Program-made: the position numbers and the translations under genes
In this document: one piece after another, positions 2,851 through 52,966 of the stretch
Position numbering within the stretch: position 1 is the first letter of the stretch
Layout: each line of letters starts with the position of its first letter
NCBI GenBank assembly: GCA_012521055.1
Contig: JAAYNC010000062.1
Coordinates: 14,315-78,314, forward strand
Length of the DNA stretch: 64,000 nucleotides
Reading direction: 5' to 3'
Source: Eubacteriales Family XIII. Incertae Sedis bacterium
GTDB lineage: Bacteria > Bacillota > Clostridia > Peptostreptococcales > Anaerovoracaceae
The notes under the pieces: generated by a model
Databases searched by the model: none
What the model was told of the DNA's origin: nothing
The model's input: the letters and a program-made list of their open reading frames with translations, nothing else

Positions 2851-2987
2851 ATAAATCTCCTCATAAAAAATGTTCATAACATTCTATCATATACATGCTA
2901 TATTGTGTAGATTCTTTGCCAAAAAAATGGTACGATAAACCTTGTCATGCAGTTAAATGAAACACGCATAAAGCAAAAGGTGGGATT

Positions 2988-3944
2988 ATGAGGAAGAATC
3001 TTCTAGGAAATACGGGTTTAATGGTTACGGAAGTCGGATTTGGAGTTCTCACCGTAGGAAACACTCAGCTGAATCTGCCTATTCCTGAGGGAGCTGCCCT
3101 GATTCGCTATGCACTGGAAAGAGGCATCAATTTTCTCGACACTGCACAGTATTATCAAACCTATCCATATATTCGCCAAGCTCTCAAAGGAACTGATTTC
3201 GACCCGGTTATTGTCTCCAAATGTCTTTATGGAGGTTATAAAGACATGGAGGAGGCCATCGAGGAGGCAAGAAAAGAGATGGACAGAGATGTGGTTGAAG
3301 TCTTTCTCCTCCACGAAGTGCGCGGTGAGAAGGACTGGGAACTGCGTGCAGGAGCTTGGGAATGTCTGCAAGATGCCAAAGCAAAGGGGATTGTCAAGGC
3401 TGTGGGAATCTCTACCCATCATGTGGATGTAACACGCCTTGCGGCAGGAATACCGTCCATAGACGTGGTCTTTCCTCTAATCAATTTTAAAGGCCTTGGG
3501 ATCAGAAACGGCGAAAACCCCGGCACTAAGGAAGATATGGCTGAAGCCATCAAGGACGCAGCAGATGCGGGAAAAGGAGTCTTCGCCATGAAGGTTTTCG
3601 GCGGCGGCATCTTATTGAAAGACTACCGTCAAGCCGTTGAGTACGTAAAGAATCTACCAGGTATTTCATCCCTCATGATAGGTTTCGGTCATCCCGACGA
3701 AGTGGACAGGATAATTGAAATGATGGAAGGCACCCTCTCTTACGACTATGTGCCTGATATGAGCAACAAACGGATTTTCATAGATCAGGGAGATTGTGAA
3801 GGCTGCGAAGCATGCCTGCGCCGTTGCCCAAATCATGCCATCTATATGAATGAAACAGGCCAGGCAAACGTAAATTATGATATTTGCCTGACCTGCGGTT
3901 ATTGTGCTCCGGTTTGCCCGGTACGCGCTATTATAATGCTCTAA
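2988..3944 (+). CDS. aldo/keto reductase fused to a C-terminal 2x[4Fe-4S] ferredoxin domain
   Basis: AKR-like N-terminus (GNTGLMVTEVGFG, INFLDTAQYY). The C-terminus carries two CxxCxxCxxxCP motifs (CEGCEACLRRCP, CLTCGYCAPVCP). Confidence 0.8.
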   Translation: MRKNLLGNTGLMVTEVGFGVLTVGNTQLNLPIPEGAALIRYALERGINFLDTAQYYQTYPYIRQALKGTDFDPVIVSKCLYGGYKDMEEAIEEARKEMDRDVVEVFLLHEVRGEKDWELRAGAWECLQDAKAKGIVKAVGISTHHVDVTRLAAGIPSIDVVFPLINFKGLGIRNGENPGTKEDMAEAIKDAADAGKGVFAMKVFGGGILLKDYRQAVEYVKNLPGISSLMIGFGHPDEVDRIIEMMEGTLSYDYVPDMSNKRIFIDQGDCEGCEACLRRCPNHAIYMNETGQANVNYDICLTCGYCAPVCPVRAIIML

Positions 3945-3959
3945 CCGATGTAAAAATTA

Positions 3960-4433
3960 TTAAAGATCCTCTTCCTCCTCTTCTTCCTCATCGTCGTGCT
4001 CGAATTCGGAGTCAGGATCAAAACCCTTCAAGCCTTCCAGCTCAAGGCCATGCTCTTTAGCATATACATAAATGGCGTTTTTAATAGCCTGTTCAGCAAG
4101 AACTGAACAATGTATTTTGGGTCCCGGAAGTCCGCCGAGCTCGTCTACGAAGTTCTGATTGGTCAGCTTCAATGCTTCTTCTAAGGTCTTACCCTTGATC
4201 ATTTCCGTAGCTACGCTGGAGGAAGCGATTGCAGAGCCGCAGCCAAAAGTTCTGAACTTGGCATCGACAATCACATCATTTTCTACCTTTAGAGAAATTT
4301 CCATCATATCTCCGCAAACGGGGCTGCCGTAAGTGCCTACAGCGTCGGCATCCTCGATGACTCCAACATTTTTAGGGTTCGTGAAATGTTCCATGACTTT
4401 TTCATTGTACATACCCATTTTTTTATTGCTCAT
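3960..4433 (-). CDS. nifU: NifU/IscU-type Fe-S cluster scaffold protein with a poly-acidic tail
   Basis: Scaffold cysteine motifs are present (GSPVCGDMM, FGCGSAIASSS, KIHCSVLA). It lies directly downstream of the cysteine desulfurase gene. Confidence 0.9.
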   Translation of the reverse strand: MSNKKMGMYNEKVMEHFTNPKNVGVIEDADAVGTYGSPVCGDMMEISLKVENDVIVDAKFRTFGCGSAIASSSVATEMIKGKTLEEALKLTNQNFVDELGGLPGPKIHCSVLAEQAIKNAIYVYAKEHGLELEGLKGFDPDSEFEHDDEEEEEEEDL

Positions 4434-4464
4434 CTTTATATCTCCTTCCCGCTTAATTGTTCAA

Positions 4465-10406: not shown

Positions 10407-12256
10407 AGTATTCCCTCCATTTCACATGTCACGTAACGGTTTATGCCGCAGCCGGTGCAACCAATTCTACAATCGGGTGTTTGCTGGCCCAAAAGAGCTT
10501 TTTTCCATTCGCTGCGAAGGTAAGCTTCACTTACACCGATGTCGATAATAGACCAGGGAAGTATACCTCCTTCGCAGATCCGACCCGACGTATAAAAATC
10601 GGGATCTAATCCGGCATCTTCAAAAGCCTCAATCCATTTGTCATATTTTAAATGCTCGCTCCACCCGTCAAATTTACATCCTGACTTCCAGGCTTTATAG
10701 ATCGCATCGGCCTGCCGCCTGTCTCCTCTTGCCAACACTGCTTCTATTCTGCTGGCTTCCGTACCGTGATAAGCAAACTGAGCTCCCTTTATCTTTTTAA
10801 ACTTTTCTTTTAAGTATTGTTGTTTTTCTCTAAGCTGTTCCGGACTGTCCTGGGCGAACCATTGGAACGGTGTATGAGGTTTCGGCACGAAATTGGAAGC
10901 GCTTACGTTTACTTTGAATTTGCTGCCTTTTCTACCTCTGTTGTGCTCATAATATATTTCCATGATGTTCTCGGCTATCTTGGCAATGCCGTCCAGGTCT
11001 TCGACAGTTTCCGTAGGAAGACCTATCATAAAATAAAGCTTTACGCTCGTCCAGCCAAGCTCTATGGCTTGTCTCATGCTGTTGTAAATATCATCGTCTG
11101 TGATACATTTATTTATCACGTCTCGCAGTCGCTGTGTTCCCGCTTCCGGGGCAAAAGTAAGTCCTGTTTTTTTGTATCCCTGTATTTCATCCAGGACTTG
11201 GAAAGAAAACCTGTCCAAACGGAGAGACGGCAACGATATGGCAACGTTTTTTTCCTTTCCCTTACGGACAAGTTCCGTGGTAAGTTCTTCAAATTCCGAA
11301 TAATCGCTGGTTGACAGTGACAACAGGGAAAGCTCGTCATGGCCCGTCGCACTGAGTTGTTTCTCAATCAAATCCATGACGCAATCTTTAGAGCGCTCCC
11401 TTACTGGCCGGTAGATCATACCGGCCTGACAGAACCTGCATCCCCTGGTGCAGCCGCGAAACAGTTCCATGACGGAACGATCGTGAACCACCTCAATTAG
11501 AGGCACAATGGGCTCTGTGGAAAAGGGAGCTGCATCCATATCGGTTACAATATTCTTTCGAATTCGATCCGGAGCTTCCGGCCATATCTTCACAATGGAT
11601 TCGATAGTCCCGTCCTTCTTATATTGCACCTCATAAAATGACGGAACGTAAACACCGTCTATACTCGCAATGGTTGACAGAAAATCTTTACGGTTGCCTT
11701 GTCGCTTCTTCCAGTCCGAATGTGCCTTGCATAAAGCCGGCAAAGCTTCTTCTCCGTCCCCGACAAGGAAAAAATCAAAGAAATCAGCCATAGGTTCCGG
11801 GTTAAATGCACAGGTTCCCCCTCCGATTATAAAAGGGTGGCTTTCATTTCGTTCACTACTTTTAAGCGGAATGCCGGCCAGGTCAAGCATGTTAAGCACA
11901 TTGGTATATGACAGTTCATACTGCAGGGTAAAGCCGAGCATGTCCAATTCTTTTGCGGGAGTCTTTGTCTCCAAGGTAAAAAGCGGGAGCCCTTTATCCC
12001 GCATCTGCTGTTCCATATCTAAAGCAGGAGCAAAGATTCTTTCGCAGTACACTCCGGGAAGATCATTCAACAGTTTATAAATAATTTGTAGTCCCAGATA
12101 GGACATCCCGATTTCATAAGTATCGGGAAAAGCAAAGCCGAATCGTGTAACCATGTCTTTTGGGTCTTTTTCGACGGAATTCAACTCGCCTCCTATATAT
12201 CGGCCCGGCTTTGTAACCAGTGGCAACAGCTGTTCAAGCTGTTGGTTCAAATTCAT
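10403..12256 (-). CDS. TIGR03960-type B12-binding-domain radical SAM protein
   Basis: 617 aa with the CxxxCxxC cluster GCTRGCRFCQAG. It shows the family-typical pairing with the DUF2344 gene. Confidence 0.85.
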   Translation of the reverse strand: MNLNQQLEQLLPLVTKPGRYIGGELNSVEKDPKDMVTRFGFAFPDTYEIGMSYLGLQIIYKLLNDLPGVYCERIFAPALDMEQQMRDKGLPLFTLETKTPAKELDMLGFTLQYELSYTNVLNMLDLAGIPLKSSERNESHPFIIGGGTCAFNPEPMADFFDFFLVGDGEEALPALCKAHSDWKKRQGNRKDFLSTIASIDGVYVPSFYEVQYKKDGTIESIVKIWPEAPDRIRKNIVTDMDAAPFSTEPIVPLIEVVHDRSVMELFRGCTRGCRFCQAGMIYRPVRERSKDCVMDLIEKQLSATGHDELSLLSLSTSDYSEFEELTTELVRKGKEKNVAISLPSLRLDRFSFQVLDEIQGYKKTGLTFAPEAGTQRLRDVINKCITDDDIYNSMRQAIELGWTSVKLYFMIGLPTETVEDLDGIAKIAENIMEIYYEHNRGRKGSKFKVNVSASNFVPKPHTPFQWFAQDSPEQLREKQQYLKEKFKKIKGAQFAYHGTEASRIEAVLARGDRRQADAIYKAWKSGCKFDGWSEHLKYDKWIEAFEDAGLDPDFYTSGRICEGGILPWSIIDIGVSEAYLRSEWKKALLGQQTPDCRIGCTGCGINRYVTCEMEGIL

Positions 12257-48772: not shown

Positions 48773-49157
48773 ATTATTCACCACTGTGTAAATCGTTTTC
48801 GGAATGGCTATTCTCTGTTCCGAAACACCGACTGTTAATCCAACACTATATTTCAAAACAATTATATCACTTTCCAATTTTTGTGCAACCTGCATATGGC
48901 TGTTGTGAAAAGCTGTATTGCCTGTACTGTGCAAAATTTCAAGTAATGCAGGATTATTTTCCAATAAAAGTAATTGTTAAGTAGTTTTTACATGCATTAA
49001 TTGAAATTTTGCACACCCAGAAATAGATCTACTTAGCGGCTTACGTACAATCCGATTTTTTGCACACTTTTCTTCTCACAATTAACATTGCATGTACCTG
49101 AGAATTACGTACTGCTTTTAAACAAAATAAACAGTTTAATAAATATAAAAAATAGTG

Positions 49158-49163
49158 TATAAT
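49158..49163 (+). promoter_or_regulatory. candidate extended -10 (TGTATAAT) upstream of the dehydratase operon
   Basis: TGnTATAAT lies 190 nt upstream of the first dehydratase ATG. The -35 (TTTAAT at 17 nt) is weak. Confidence 0.35.
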
Positions 49164-49351
49164 CATCTACAATTATTTAGCTGTATAAGTAGTTGAGTAA
49201 ATAGTGGCTTAAATAGCTTCCAAAAACTTTGACATAAGTAATTGGCTGCAAGTAATGCATAAGTGAATCGCGTGCGAACAATATATTAAGTAAACAGCTT
49301 ATGATTAATTGCATAAATAATGATTGTTGTTGAAACATAAGGAGAACGCCG

Positions 49352-49837
49352 ATGGAAAAATCTAAAGTCTGGAAATTTAATCACAATGTAGATACGGATC
49401 AGATTATACCATCCCAATACCTGCTGTTGCCTACCATCGAAGAAATGAAAGCCTATACTTTTGAACCCCTTATTAAAGACTTTGCTAAGCAGGTTCAGCC
49501 CGGAGACGTCATCATTGCCGGTGAAAACTTCGGATGCGGATCTTCAAGGGAACAGGCGCCCCGCGTGCTGAAAGAATTGGGTGTCCGAGCCGTCATTGCA
49601 GGTTCATTTGCCAGGATATTCTTCCGGAACGCCATCAATATCGGACTACCGGCTATCATCTGCAAAGAAGCCTACGACAGGGTAAAACAGGATGACGTAG
49701 TGGAACTTGATATGTCGGAAGGATTGCTGAAGATCGAAGGCGAAACACAGACCTGCACCAGACTTCCCGAGTACATGCAGACCATTCTCAATGCCGGCGG
49801 GCTGATTGAATTTCTCAACAAGGAGGAAGTGGAGTAA
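49352..49837 (+). CDS. aconitase-family dehydratase small subunit (LeuD/HacB-like), copy 1
   Basis: DTDQIIPSQYL, GENFGCGSSREQAP, and FARIFFRNAIN motifs. Confidence 0.88.
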   Translation: MEKSKVWKFNHNVDTDQIIPSQYLLLPTIEEMKAYTFEPLIKDFAKQVQPGDVIIAGENFGCGSSREQAPRVLKELGVRAVIAGSFARIFFRNAINIGLPAIICKEAYDRVKQDDVVELDMSEGLLKIEGETQTCTRLPEYMQTILNAGGLIEFLNKEEVE

Positions 49838-51093
49838 TGGGAATGACAATAAGCGAAAAAATTATCGCCTCGGCGGCGGGTCTCGAGAAAGTTTCTGCAG
49901 GAGAAATCCACACGGTAAACGTCGACAGGCTCATGAGCAACGATGGGACCACACACCTCACCATCGATATGTATAACACCCTGCTAAAAAATCCGAGAAT
50001 TGCCGATAAAGATAAACTTGCATTCATCATCGATCACAACATGCCTGCCGATAATCCCAAAACAGCTGCAGCTCACAAAAAAATGAGAGACTTTGCAAGG
50101 GAACATGGAATCGCATTTTATGAAGGAAAAGGCGTGTGCCACCAGATTATGATGGAAGAATATGTACGGTCAGGCGAACTGATCTTCGGCGCTGATTCCC
50201 ATACCTGCACCTACGGAGCTCTCGGCGCCTTCGGCACCGGTGTAGGCAATACTGACTTCCTCTATGCCATGGTGACAGGCAAATCCTGGGTTCTGGTGCC
50301 TCCAACTCTTCGCTTTCACCTGACGGGGAAATTTAAAGAAGGCGTTTTTCCGAGAGATTTGATCTTGACGATTATAGGCGATATCGGGGCTGACGGCGCA
50401 ACCTATAAGGTTATGGAATTTACCGGCGAAGGCGCAAAAACCATGAATATCAACGAACGCATGGTCCTGGCCAATATGGCAGTAGAAGCTGGGGCAAAGA
50501 CCGGTATATTTGAGCCTGACGAAGCGGCTTTAGAATACCTGGAGAGCCACGGCCGAAAACCGAAACATCTTTTTAAAAGCGACCCCGATGCGGTATTTGA
50601 AAAGGAATACCATTACGATCTGAGTAAAATCGAACCCGTAGTGGCAAGGCCGGACAATGTGGATGACGTTGTCAGCGTAGATGAAATCGGCCATGTCAAG
50701 ATACACCAAGGCTTTATTGGTTCCTGTAACAGCGGCAGGATTGAAGAATTGCGCACCGCCGCATCCATCCTCAAGGGCAAAAAGATCGCTGATGGCGTAA
50801 GGCTGCTCATATCCCCCGCTTCCAATGCGGTTTACCTGCAGGCGCTACAGGAAGGTTTGATGGATATATTTATAGATGCGAGCGCAATGATCATGAACAG
50901 CAACTGCAGCGTTTGCTGGGGCGGCTGCCAGGGTGTCATTGGCGAAGGCGAAGTGTTAATATCAACGGGTACAAGGAACTTTAAAGGCAGGGCCGGCCAC
51001 AAAGATTCAAAAGTCTACCTTGCCTCGGCGGCAACGGTAGCAGCTTCCGCTTTGGCCGGTAAAATTGTCCGGTCAGATAGAGTCACCGCATAA
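49837..51093 (+). CDS. aconitase-family dehydratase large subunit (archaeal-type LeuC/HacA-like), copy 1
   Basis: GADSHTCTYGALGAF and IGSCNSGR motifs, plus a Cys pair in NCSVCWGGC. The start overlaps the upstream stop (TAATG). Confidence 0.88.
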   Translation: MGMTISEKIIASAAGLEKVSAGEIHTVNVDRLMSNDGTTHLTIDMYNTLLKNPRIADKDKLAFIIDHNMPADNPKTAAAHKKMRDFAREHGIAFYEGKGVCHQIMMEEYVRSGELIFGADSHTCTYGALGAFGTGVGNTDFLYAMVTGKSWVLVPPTLRFHLTGKFKEGVFPRDLILTIIGDIGADGATYKVMEFTGEGAKTMNINERMVLANMAVEAGAKTGIFEPDEAALEYLESHGRKPKHLFKSDPDAVFEKEYHYDLSKIEPVVARPDNVDDVVSVDEIGHVKIHQGFIGSCNSGRIEELRTAASILKGKKIADGVRLLISPASNAVYLQALQEGLMDIFIDASAMIMNSNCSVCWGGCQGVIGEGEVLISTGTRNFKGRAGHKDSKVYLASAATVAASALAGKIVRSDRVTA

Positions 51094-51135
51094 AGAACTA
51101 CTACTTGCCTGAAGATGGCATTATGGAGGTAATAG

Positions 51136-51627
51136 ATGAAAATCAAAGGAAATGTCTGGGTACTTGGAGATGACATAGATACGGATATAATCATACCCAC
51201 AGAATACCTGGCCATGAAAAGTATCGACGATATGAAACAATACGCTTTTTCACCCCTAAGACCTAAGCTAGCCGCATCTATACGTCCCGGCGATATAATC
51301 GTGGCAGGAAAGAACTTCGGTTGCGGTTCTTCGAGAGAGCAGGCGCCGGAGATCATAAAAAGCCTTCAGGTGGGCTGTGTCATCGCAAAATCCTTTGCCC
51401 GAATCTTCTATCGCAACGCAATAAATAACGGTCTTCTACTGGCAGAACACGATCTTTTGCCCGAGCTGGTCACCGAGGGGGACGAAATCACGGTCTCCGT
51501 GGGCGAATACATCGAACACAAAGGCAAAAGGTATGACCTCTCTCCCCTGCCCCCGAATTTAATGGAAATCATTGAGGCCGGCGGGCTTGTGGAAGCTATG
51601 AAAAAGAAGAATGCGCGAAATTATTAA
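51136..51627 (+). CDS. aconitase-family dehydratase small subunit, copy 2
   Basis: DTDIIIPTEYL, GKNFGCGSSREQAP, and FARIFYRNAIN motifs. Roughly 45% identical to copy 1 by eye. Confidence 0.88.
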   Translation: MKIKGNVWVLGDDIDTDIIIPTEYLAMKSIDDMKQYAFSPLRPKLAASIRPGDIIVAGKNFGCGSSREQAPEIIKSLQVGCVIAKSFARIFYRNAINNGLLLAEHDLLPELVTEGDEITVSVGEYIEHKGKRYDLSPLPPNLMEIIEAGGLVEAMKKKNARNY

Positions 51628-51718
51628 ACAATGTAAGCTATTTAAAAGTTCATAAAATCGAAAGTCCATAATCACAATTATATATATTTAATCGTTCCCA
51701 ATAGAAAGGGTTAATAAA

Positions 51719-52966
51719 ATGGGATACACCTGCATCGAAAAAATTATTATGAACAATCTCGGACTAAAGCATGTCCGTCCAAACGATATCGTCACCATTA
51801 ATGTGGACCGGGTCATGATTCATGACATCTTCGTCCCCTTTGTGTCGGAGAAATTCGAAGAGATGGGCTTTGATAAGATCTGGGATCCGGAAAAGGTTGT
51901 TTTAATTTACGACCATCTCGTCCCCACCAGCAGAGTGGAAGACGTTCGTCATTTTCAAATCGGTGACGCTTTTGCAGCCAAATACGGAATAAAGAACGTA
52001 CATAGAGGCGAAGGCATCTGTCACCAGCTCATGCCGGAAGCCGGTTACGTTAAGCCCGGAGACGTGGTCTTCGGTACCGACTCCCACACCACCACCTACG
52101 GAAGCATAGGCGCTTTTTCTTCCGGAGTAGGTTATACGGAAATGGCGGCCATTTTAGGAACAGGGCAGCTCTGGATTAAAGTCCCGGAGACCATTCGCGT
52201 AACCATCGACGGAAAACTGCCCGCTGGTGTCATGTCCAAGGACGTCATTCTTCGCCTGATCGGGGATCTTGGCGCGGACGGCGCAAATTACAAGGCACTG
52301 GAGTTTGCGGGCAGCGCCGTGGACTCCATGAGCATCGCCTCCCGCATGACAATTGCCAACATGTCAGTGGAAGCCGGAGCAAAGGTCGGTTTGTTTGCCC
52401 CCGATGAGAAAGTTGCTGAGTACTGCGAGGTTTCCGTTGAGGAAATTCCTGATATTTCAGCGGACGAAGACGCGAAATATGTGAAAGAAATCCGCTATAA
52501 AGCAGAAGAACTGTTGCCGGTTGTGGCCTGCCCTTCTTCCGTGGATAAAATAAAACCCTTAACAGAAGTGGAAGGCACACCCATCGATCAGGTGTTTATA
52601 GGTTCCTGCACCAACGGAAGATTGGAAGATCTGGAAATCGCCGCAAAGGTCCTCAGAGGGAAAAAAGTGGCTGATTATGTCAAGTTAATTGTCACGCCAG
52701 CCAGCCGGGAAGTTTATCGCCAGGCTTCCCAAGCCGGAATTTTAGAAACTCTGATAAAAGCCGGAGCCATCATCACCCATCCCGGCTGCGGACTCTGCTG
52801 CGGCAGAAGCGGAGGTATTTTAAGCGAAGGAGAACGGGTGGTTGCAACCAACAACAGGAACTTTCTCGGCCGTATGGGTCCCTCTTCCGTAGAAATCTAT
52901 CTCAGTTCGCCGGCTATTGCGGCCGCCAGTGCCGTTGCCGGCAGGATAGCTCTTCCGGCCCTTTAA
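51719..52966 (+). CDS. aconitase-family dehydratase large subunit, copy 2
   Basis: GTDSHTTTYGSIGAF, IGSCTNGR, and HPGCGLCCG motifs. Roughly 40% identical to copy 1 by eye. Confidence 0.88.
   Translation: MGYTCIEKIIMNNLGLKHVRPNDIVTINVDRVMIHDIFVPFVSEKFEEMGFDKIWDPEKVVLIYDHLVPTSRVEDVRHFQIGDAFAAKYGIKNVHRGEGICHQLMPEAGYVKPGDVVFGTDSHTTTYGSIGAFSSGVGYTEMAAILGTGQLWIKVPETIRVTIDGKLPAGVMSKDVILRLIGDLGADGANYKALEFAGSAVDSMSIASRMTIANMSVEAGAKVGLFAPDEKVAEYCEVSVEEIPDISADEDAKYVKEIRYKAEELLPVVACPSSVDKIKPLTEVEGTPIDQVFIGSCTNGRLEDLEIAAKVLRGKKVADYVKLIVTPASREVYRQASQAGILETLIKAGAIITHPGCGLCCGRSGGILSEGERVVATNNRNFLGRMGPSSVEIYLSSPAIAAASAVAGRIALPAL

Follow-up and report, generated by a model that had tools for sequence, protein, structure and literature searches.

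Canonical LeuCD (TIGR02083 and TIGR02084), the isopropylmalate isomerase of leucine synthesis, is one heterodimer of a large subunit of ~415 amino acids (aa) and a small subunit of ~160 aa, with the two genes in large-then-small order. The isomerase of Methanocaldococcus jannaschii (MJ0499+MJ1277; structures 4NQY, 4KP1 and 3VBA) consists of one pair, encoded by unlinked genes, which takes part in the leucine as well as the citramalate route. Together with the homoaconitase of M. jannaschii (MJ1003+MJ1271; 4KP2 and 2PKP), which belongs to its own pathway (coenzyme B), it offers a precedent for two paralogous pairs with loop-set specificity. The recognition loop lies in the small subunit and sets substrate preference in the family, and in Arabidopsis, where isopropylmalate isomerase consists of one large and three small subunits, related substrates are shared out among paralogous small subunits that differ in their recognition regions (PMC7308503). 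Here, we examined a cassette of four genes of this family in a 64,000-nucleotide (nt) stretch of an Anaerovoracaceae genome (GenBank assembly GCA_012521055.1, contig JAAYNC010000062.1); the whole stretch is called the window below, and the genome G000. The cassette encodes two pairs of subunits, named D for small and C for large and numbered by pair in gene order (D1, C1, D2, C2). Comparison across genomes suggests that it very probably supplies the isomerase step of leucine synthesis, and leads us to favour, with moderate confidence, a two-heterodimer ('twin') isopropylmalate isomerase, one functional unit that replaces LeuC-LeuD.

All four genes lie on the plus strand: D1 at 49352..49837 (161 aa), C1 at 49837..51093 (418 aa), D2 at 51136..51627 (163 aa) and C2 at 51719..52966 (415 aa). 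The first-pass annotation, made from the letters alone, had described four co-directional LeuD-, LeuC-, LeuD- and LeuC-like genes, and the open reading frames were found at the sites and with the lengths it gave, including the overlap of the C1 start with the D1 stop, which reads directly as TAATG. Pfam places D1 and D2 in Aconitase_C (D1 is of the aconitase domain-4 type) and C1 and C2 in Aconitase. The two pairs are 43% identical in the large and 44% in the small subunit, within the range of 40-45% that had been estimated by eye. The cassette shares with canonical LeuCD the fold family, the subunit split, the cluster ligands and the catalytic residues, and in the locus L120, described below, also the slot between leuA and leuB. 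It differs in comprising two heterodimers, at 42-49% identity to LeuCD, and in the small-then-large order of both pairs, which is as unusual as had been supposed, since the 25/25 non-cassette pairs that were fetched are all large-then-small. Unlike the paralogous pairs of M. jannaschii, those of the cassette have no second pathway, carry no Arg in the loop and are linked in one operon. Unlike in Arabidopsis, where the large subunit is shared and the second pathway has separate synthases, both subunits are duplicated here and there is one synthase.

The window's contig carries no leuA, leuB or cimA, as the first-pass annotation had remarked for the surroundings of the cassette; leuA and leuB stand elsewhere in the G000 assembly (1.94 Mb, 249 contigs, 92% complete). 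The leuA gene is on the small contig C161 and encodes a 2-isopropylmalate synthase of the short form (NF002086, 783 bits); leuB starts directly after it and continues on contig C99. The two genes (C161:2-1751 and C99:1-342) overlap by ~29 nt with nothing between them, and they overlap likewise in a close and far more contiguous relative (G010; L142:1148-3764), whose only aconitase-family genes are the cassette and a fused aconitase. In relatives of the same order, the arrangement is leuA-leuC-leuD-leuB. With ilvB-ilvN-ilvC and IlvA also found in G000, the leucine pathway is complete but for the isomerase, so the two pairs are the only candidates for this step. It looks as if leuCD was cleanly excised from between leuA and leuB after the arrival of the cassette. 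Genomes of the same family either have the canonical leuA-leuC-leuD-leuB operon (L121) or lack LeuC altogether, which points to a lateral acquisition that displaced leuCD; hence, the Anaerovoracaceae lineage probably received the cassette laterally and its old leuCD was deleted.

G000 contains only three aconitase-family large domains, namely C1, C2 and that of a fused 643-aa aconitase (NF005558, 958 bits), which adjoins isocitrate dehydrogenase on contig C247. We rejected a role of the cassette as the aconitase, an enzyme of the fused four-domain type found with isocitrate dehydrogenase, since this separate fused enzyme fills that type in G000. Read by eye, the region C247:10284-18011 has the fused aconitase and isocitrate dehydrogenase directly after genes resembling those of 4-hydroxybutyryl-CoA (coenzyme A) dehydratase, a CoA-transferase and an iron alcohol dehydrogenase; a GntR regulator comes next.

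The replacement of leuCD was also seen in the Lachnospiraceae. Canonical LeuC (TIGR02083 above its cut-off) is present exactly once in 20/20 non-carrier genomes of this family, at 685-748 bits, and absent from 21/22 carriers, where hits to the same model are confined to the two cassette genes (418-470 bits) (20/20 non-carriers versus 1/22 carriers, Fisher p = 8e-11). Cassette and canonical LeuCD are, therefore, mutually exclusive in genomes bar one (G376), as expected of a functional replacement. Among the cultured or complete carriers, 11/12 have no LeuC-type gene beyond the cassette, save the fused aconitase (650-820 aa), and Enterocloster aldenensis has one extra LeuC-like gene. The partner enzymes are present: each carrier has one LeuB and one isocitrate dehydrogenase, and a single LeuA-type synthase was found in 9/13 carrier genomes, or in 11/13 if only full-length LeuA/CimA-type proteins are counted. 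Its identity as 2-isopropylmalate synthase was confirmed in Blautia wexlerae (PRK03739, 801 bits), in G280 (778 bits) and in G000. In carriers, which have leuA and leuB, the cassette is thus, with few exceptions, the only LeuCD-type enzyme.

A genomic and regulatory link to leuA and leuB was found in L120, a locus of genome G280 whose cassette is 62-66% identical to the one described here; it was not found in the window or in the 13 other loci scanned. The gene order in L120 is T-box, leuA, D1, C1, D2, C2, leuB, an acyl-ACP-thioesterase-like gene (ACP, acyl carrier protein), a second T-box, ilvB, ilvN and ilvC. Alignment to the covariance model gives the first T-box the specifier GAA-CUC-A (leucine) and the second GUC (valine). 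Canonical Clostridia operons that were fetched read [leuA][cimA]-leuC-leuD-leuB and, by comparison with these, the whole cassette fills the leuCD slot. From the position of the leucine T-box, both pairs are predicted to be induced by uncharged tRNA-Leu. Taken with the exclusion of canonical leuCD and the single leuA and leuB, the L120 slot identifies the cassette as a stand-in for leuCD. The earlier judgement that the pairs are not assignable by context is right inside the window and does not hold across genomes, where leuCD is replaced and the L120 operon is found. The two T-boxes of L120 lie at 2980-3218 and 10852-11126, and the thioesterase-like gene, between leuB and the second T-box, at 3722-4459.

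It is possible that leucine synthesis relies on one pair only and that the other is a hydro-lyase acting on another hydrophobic 2-alkylmalate or alkylmaleate, kept in place for shared regulation; it might, for instance, clear side products of a promiscuous LeuA (citramalate, 2-ethylmalate, citraconate) or act in an unrecognised pathway. This would fit the loops, which are fixed and differ between D1 and D2 and which set preference in the family (PMC7308503). It would also fit the distances, since each pair differs as much from the other as from canonical LeuCD, and the apparently catabolic outgroup L034, which indicates that the family does diversify in function. On the other hand, the two pairs co-occur across ~160 genomes, apart from three with C1 only, both lie within the leucine T-box operon of L120, and neither has the canonical loop or the short branch that a 'housekeeping' copy would be expected to keep. 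Moreover, no dedicated synthase, dehydrogenase or lyase was found in carrier genomes, where CimA was not found and IlvA is present. Co-inheritance, the lack of partner enzymes, the shared leucine T-box and the non-canonical character of both pairs make this explanation less likely than joint action, and we consider it the one serious alternative, yet a minority reading.

Citramalate specificity, one of the examples given in the first-pass annotation, is not supported. The CimA model found no citramalate synthase in 22 carriers, nor was one found in most of the first 13 carriers, and IlvA is above its equivalog cut-off in 14/15; a citramalate route to isoleucine was, therefore, rejected as the task of the second pair. 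CimA is also absent from the 20 non-carriers, so the comparison of carriers with non-carriers does not discriminate in this respect. Among the first 13 carriers, Lacrimispora xylanisolvens has a second full-length LeuA-family synthase of 556 aa, of unclassified type.

In NCBIfam, only subfamily-level models were passed (LeuD/DmdB for the small and LeuC/HacA for the large subunits), and none of D1, C1, D2 and C2 reached the equivalog cut-offs for LeuC, LeuD, HacA or HacB. With TIGR02083 (LEU2, cut-off 610.65 bits), C1 and C2 scored 457.5 and 455.0 bits, and with TIGR02084 (leud, cut-off 245.85 bits), D1 and D2 scored 164.3 and 146.6 bits. Among solved structures, the isopropylmalate/citramalate isomerase subunits of M. 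jannaschii are the closest to all four proteins. D1 scored 159 bits with the small subunit 3VBA versus 130 bits with the homoaconitase 2PKP, and D2 145 versus 105 bits; C1 scored 388 bits with the large subunit 4NQY versus 335 bits with the homoaconitase 4KP2, and C2 427 versus 361 bits.

The recognition loops depart from the described types. Validated clostridial LeuD reads P-A-R-Y-L-N-T(-S), the M. jannaschii isomerase (3VBA) P-A-R-Y-L-V-Y and its homoaconitase (2PKP) P-G-P-Y-L-R-T. The D1 loop is S21-Q-Y-L-L-L-P27 (49412..49432), and all 91 orthologues share its S and Q and the L directly after Y-L; the D2 loop is T22-E-Y-L-A-M-K28 (51199..51219), with T and E invariant and A at 99% in 99 orthologues, followed by L or M. 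The canonical pattern (P-A-R-Y-L-N/V-T/Y) is, therefore, found in neither, and each variant is fixed in its own clade. The Arg before Tyr, which the M. jannaschii isomerase keeps (ARYL), is lost in D1 and D2, with Glu in its place in D2, and because of this loss, neither pair by itself resembles a standard isomerase. After Y-L, both loops continue with hydrophobic residues, as does that of the M. jannaschii isomerase, which speaks against homoaconitate, aconitate or another substrate that bears a carboxylate. The readings YLLL and YLAM given in the first-pass annotation are correct, as is YLRT for homoaconitase, but the isomerase loop that it gave as YLVM reads YLVY in 3VBA; its reading of both loops as hydrophobic holds, so that neither pair is a homoaconitase.

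That one pair might still be a homoaconitase of the HacAB type, acting in 2-oxoadipate or 2-oxoacid elongation, is hardly credible. Some sources name the orthologues 'homoaconitase large subunit', and the HacA and HacB models score nearly as high as the Leu models on the cassette proteins. Against this, neither loop has the Arg of YLRT, to which the additional carboxylate binds in homoaconitase, the scores are under the equivalog cut-offs and carriers in general have no homocitrate synthase partner. In addition, M. jannaschii homoaconitase falls outside a group with 96/96 support that holds canonical LeuCD, the M. jannaschii isomerase and both cassette pairs in a tree of concatenated small and large subunits.

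No cluster ligand or catalytic residue varies among 90 C1, 97 C2, 91 D1 and 99 D2 sequences (100% conservation). The invariant set comprises Asp-His, His, Asp-Ser-His, Asn/Glu, three Cys (in C1 the cluster ligands Cys295, Cys355 and Cys358), Arg-x4-Arg and GSSRE. The motifs that the first-pass annotation had found intact are indeed so, with GSSREQAP (in both D1 and D2), DSHT, GSC(N/T), CxxC and RNFxGR present here and 100% conserved in the 90-99 orthologues of each protein. Judged by these residues, both pairs are competent. As had been proposed, they are paralogous hydro-lyase pairs, distinct from each other; they are also old and apparently functional. Each pair also has fixed substitutions beside its active-site motifs, in which it differs from canonical LeuCD. 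At positions invariant in 16 operon-validated LeuC proteins and the M. jannaschii isomerase, the clade-fixed changes are P38H, K171R, N for T in GSC-T and T for N in N-RNF in C1, and T38F (HDI-F), T for C after DSHT (DSHT-T-T) and Y-T-E for S-T-D after GIG (GVG-Y-T-E) in C2.

These data also bear on whether the pairs are redundant isozymes of isopropylmalate isomerase that differ, for example, in cluster stability or kinetics. Both pairs have all the catalytic residues, and the C1 changes next to the cluster-binding residues (GSC-N, T-RNF) could alter the environment of the cluster. However, redundant copies are usually lost or differently regulated, which contrasts with the single operon, fixed order and strong conservation seen here in all carriers, and the recognition loops of both pairs are non-canonical. 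Hence, we consider isozymes unlikely.

Catabolic hydratases with no role in leucine synthesis, such as the 2,3-dimethylmalate dehydratase DmdAB of nicotinate fermentation or the citramalate/mesaconate-type enzymes of glutamate fermentation, are very unlikely. The NCBIfam small-subunit model is named LeuD/DmdB, and the organism looks like an amino-acid fermenter from the 4-hydroxybutyrate genes seen by eye on contig C247. However, the neighbourhood of the cassette shows no conserved genes for nicotinate or glutamate fermentation, and a purely catabolic role would leave the carriers with leuA and leuB without any isomerase and would not fit the leucine T-box operon. DmdAB is set apart by its published description: it is reported to be >50% identical to a true LeuCD (PMC7311316), versus <=49% identity to canonical LeuC for the cassette pairs. 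A DmdAB-type cluster with methylitaconate isomerase and dimethylmalate lyase was rejected, as the 90 loci have no conserved neighbours, and the fermentation roles suggested in the first-pass annotation fail for want of conserved catabolic partner genes.

The nearest outgroup of the cassette is in Enterococcus sp. DIV0756 (L034:6857-13564), in a putative catabolic cluster recognised by eye only. It consists of a PrpF/methylitaconate-isomerase-like gene, a LeuC-like gene, a LeuD-like gene (loop P-P-R-Y-M-E-L), a family III CoA-transferase and HMG-CoA-lyase-like and aldehyde dehydrogenase-like genes, and may be a route for itaconate or a citraconate-type acid.

In the large-subunit tree, C1 and C2 are each monophyletic with 100% support and have long stems. 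The deep order of C1, C2, canonical LeuC and the archaeal enzymes is not resolved by the large subunits and is weak when the subunits are concatenated. The concatenated tree places pairs 1 and 2 as sisters, at a weak support of 76/17, on stems of 0.73 and 1.34 substitutions/site. Shared small-then-large order, weak sisterhood and long stems favour an old tandem duplication of a small-large unit, with divergence of both copies, as the probable origin of the cassette; by the same comparison, one conserved copy with one drifting copy is not favoured. The check proposed in the first-pass annotation for an ordinary LeuCD with a simple paralogue came out divided: leuCD was found nowhere else in the genome, yet canonical LeuCD forms no tight cluster with either pair, which argues against that simple arrangement.

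The cassette is inherited as a block. The order D1-C1-D2-C2 was found in 98 fetched loci, comprising 18/18 with a C1 orthologue (67-96% identity) and all 80 best C2 loci; the incomplete loci, ten of them among the 80, are truncated where a contig ends. Branching within the clades is broadly parallel, which is consistent with block inheritance, and clustering of all flanking open reading frames from 90 loci revealed no other conserved neighbour. An even sample of 401 Lachnospiraceae genomes contained a C1 orthologue in 60, of which 57 also have C2, nearly always ~1.8 kb downstream; C2 without C1 was found in 0/401. In two of the three C1-only genomes (G427 and G670), a contig end lies close to C1 and has probably cut off C2; the third is G617, and the contig end was considered for the first two only. 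Hence, ~15% of the sampled Lachnospiraceae carry the cassette, common human gut species among them, and the cultured carriers include Blautia wexlerae, B. luti, Anaerostipes, Coprococcus comes, Fusicatenibacter, Hungatella hathewayi, Lacrimispora and Enterocloster. Only 3/300 genomes of an even sample of the Clostridia have it. The sources annotate the orthologues generically, as isopropylmalate dehydratase, homoaconitase or family protein.

Several records merit separate mention. The most divergent cassette (60-61% identity) is that of G376 (C22:332038-333288; C29:258176-261169; C29:268844-270079), where a third LeuC-like gene lies 8 kb from the cassette; this genome may represent an intermediate state of the replacement. 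Cassettes in the 'cleanbin' records L043, L028, L055, L073, L082 and L091, labelled Tidjanibacter, Bacteroidaceae, Holdemanella, Paludibacteraceae, Eggerthellaceae and Prevotella, respectively, resemble those of Lachnospiraceae, and the tree check, which covered L043, showed its cassette to be almost the same as that of Fusicatenibacter saccharivorans. For these non-Clostridia records, bin contamination is more likely than cross-phylum transfer. Two public C1 orthologues, P0001 (618 aa) and P0026 (503 aa), were rejected as natural subunit fusions, since each has an exact internal duplication of ~100-200 residues, and they are most likely assembly artefacts.

The cassette would catalyse the conversion of 2-isopropylmalate to 3-isopropylmalate, with D1+C1 and D2+C2 each forming a [4Fe-4S] aconitase-type hydro-lyase heterodimer. 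In each, the large subunit would provide the cluster and most catalytic residues, and the small subunit the serine base of GSSRE together with the loop that reads the side group of the substrate. A small-then-large gene pair would have been duplicated in tandem and both copies would then have diverged, dividing the work of the ancestral enzyme; such a division of labour between the pairs is suggested by analogy and by the pattern of divergence. We put the chances that both pairs are needed for the leucine step at about even. Two forms of joint action can be envisaged. One pair might dehydrate 2-isopropylmalate while the other hydrates 2-isopropylmaleate, or both pairs might assemble into an obligate hetero-oligomer; each is tentative and, taken singly, doubtful, and the weights we give to the two overlap. 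Half-reactions are divided between two enzymes by fungal aconitase and homoaconitase (lysine) and by PrpD or AcnD and aconitase (methylcitrate cycle). We know of no isopropylmalate isomerase with split half-reactions, and the extension of this precedent from elsewhere in the aconitase family to the cassette is speculation. Leucine synthesis through an undescribed two-enzyme or hetero-oligomeric isomerase, with heterodimers that became mutually dependent after tandem duplication, is put forward as a possibility at clearly below even chances. Joint or heteromeric action had also been raised in the first-pass annotation and is possible. A literature search found no published description of the twin cassette.

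Several observations weigh against a twin isomerase for leucine. Neither pair reaches the curated LeuC/LeuD equivalog scores, and the Arg that stands before Tyr throughout validated LeuD is missing from both D1 and D2. A canonical LeuC is also kept by the carrier G376, which shows that cassette and leuCD can coexist in one genome. Support for pairs 1 and 2 as sisters is weak (76/17), and neither leu neighbours nor a T-box accompany the cassette in the window or in 13 other loci. Finally, the present tests do not separate a need of both pairs for leucine from one pair serving leucine and the other something else.

Within the window, D1 is preceded by an AT-rich leader of 387 nt (48965-49351), with a ribosome-binding site read from the sequence as AAGGAGA at 49339..49345 on the plus strand. 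A promoter-like site on the same strand, TTAATA-16-TATAAT at 49136..49163, comes from a consensus scan only, in which the number of such sites was not above the shuffled expectation. An Rfam search of the 387-nt leader matched no family, T-box or riboswitch. As there is no known leader here or in the 13 other loci, leucine control of these cassettes, if any, works another way. The C1-D2 and D2-C2 junctions measure 42 and 91 nt and have their own ribosome-binding sites. The cassette is flanked by unrelated genes on the minus strand: upstream are thiamin pyrophosphokinase, a radical-SAM/SPASM enzyme, GNAT and his genes, and downstream are a DUF5305 protein, whose convergent gene shares 4 nt with the 3' end of C2, and a TasA-like fibre locus.

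Leucine biosynthesis is regarded as completely understood, yet automated annotation as leuC/leuD or 'homoaconitase' hides a swap of the standard enzyme for a co-inherited pair of pairs, in ~15% of Lachnospiraceae (Blautia, Anaerostipes, Fusicatenibacter, Coprococcus comes, Hungatella, Enterocloster and Lacrimispora among them) and in this Anaerovoracaceae lineage. The swap matters for metabolic models of gut bacteria, for predictions of auxotrophy and for the rules that relate the recognition loop to specificity. Were the two heterodimers mutually dependent, a textbook single-enzyme step would be split in abundant human gut Lachnospiraceae. If both pairs are needed, the cassette would be a natural case of an aconitase-type isomerase that was split or made an obligate heteromer, and it would inform the evolution of enzymes after duplication and the 'flip' between the half-reactions.

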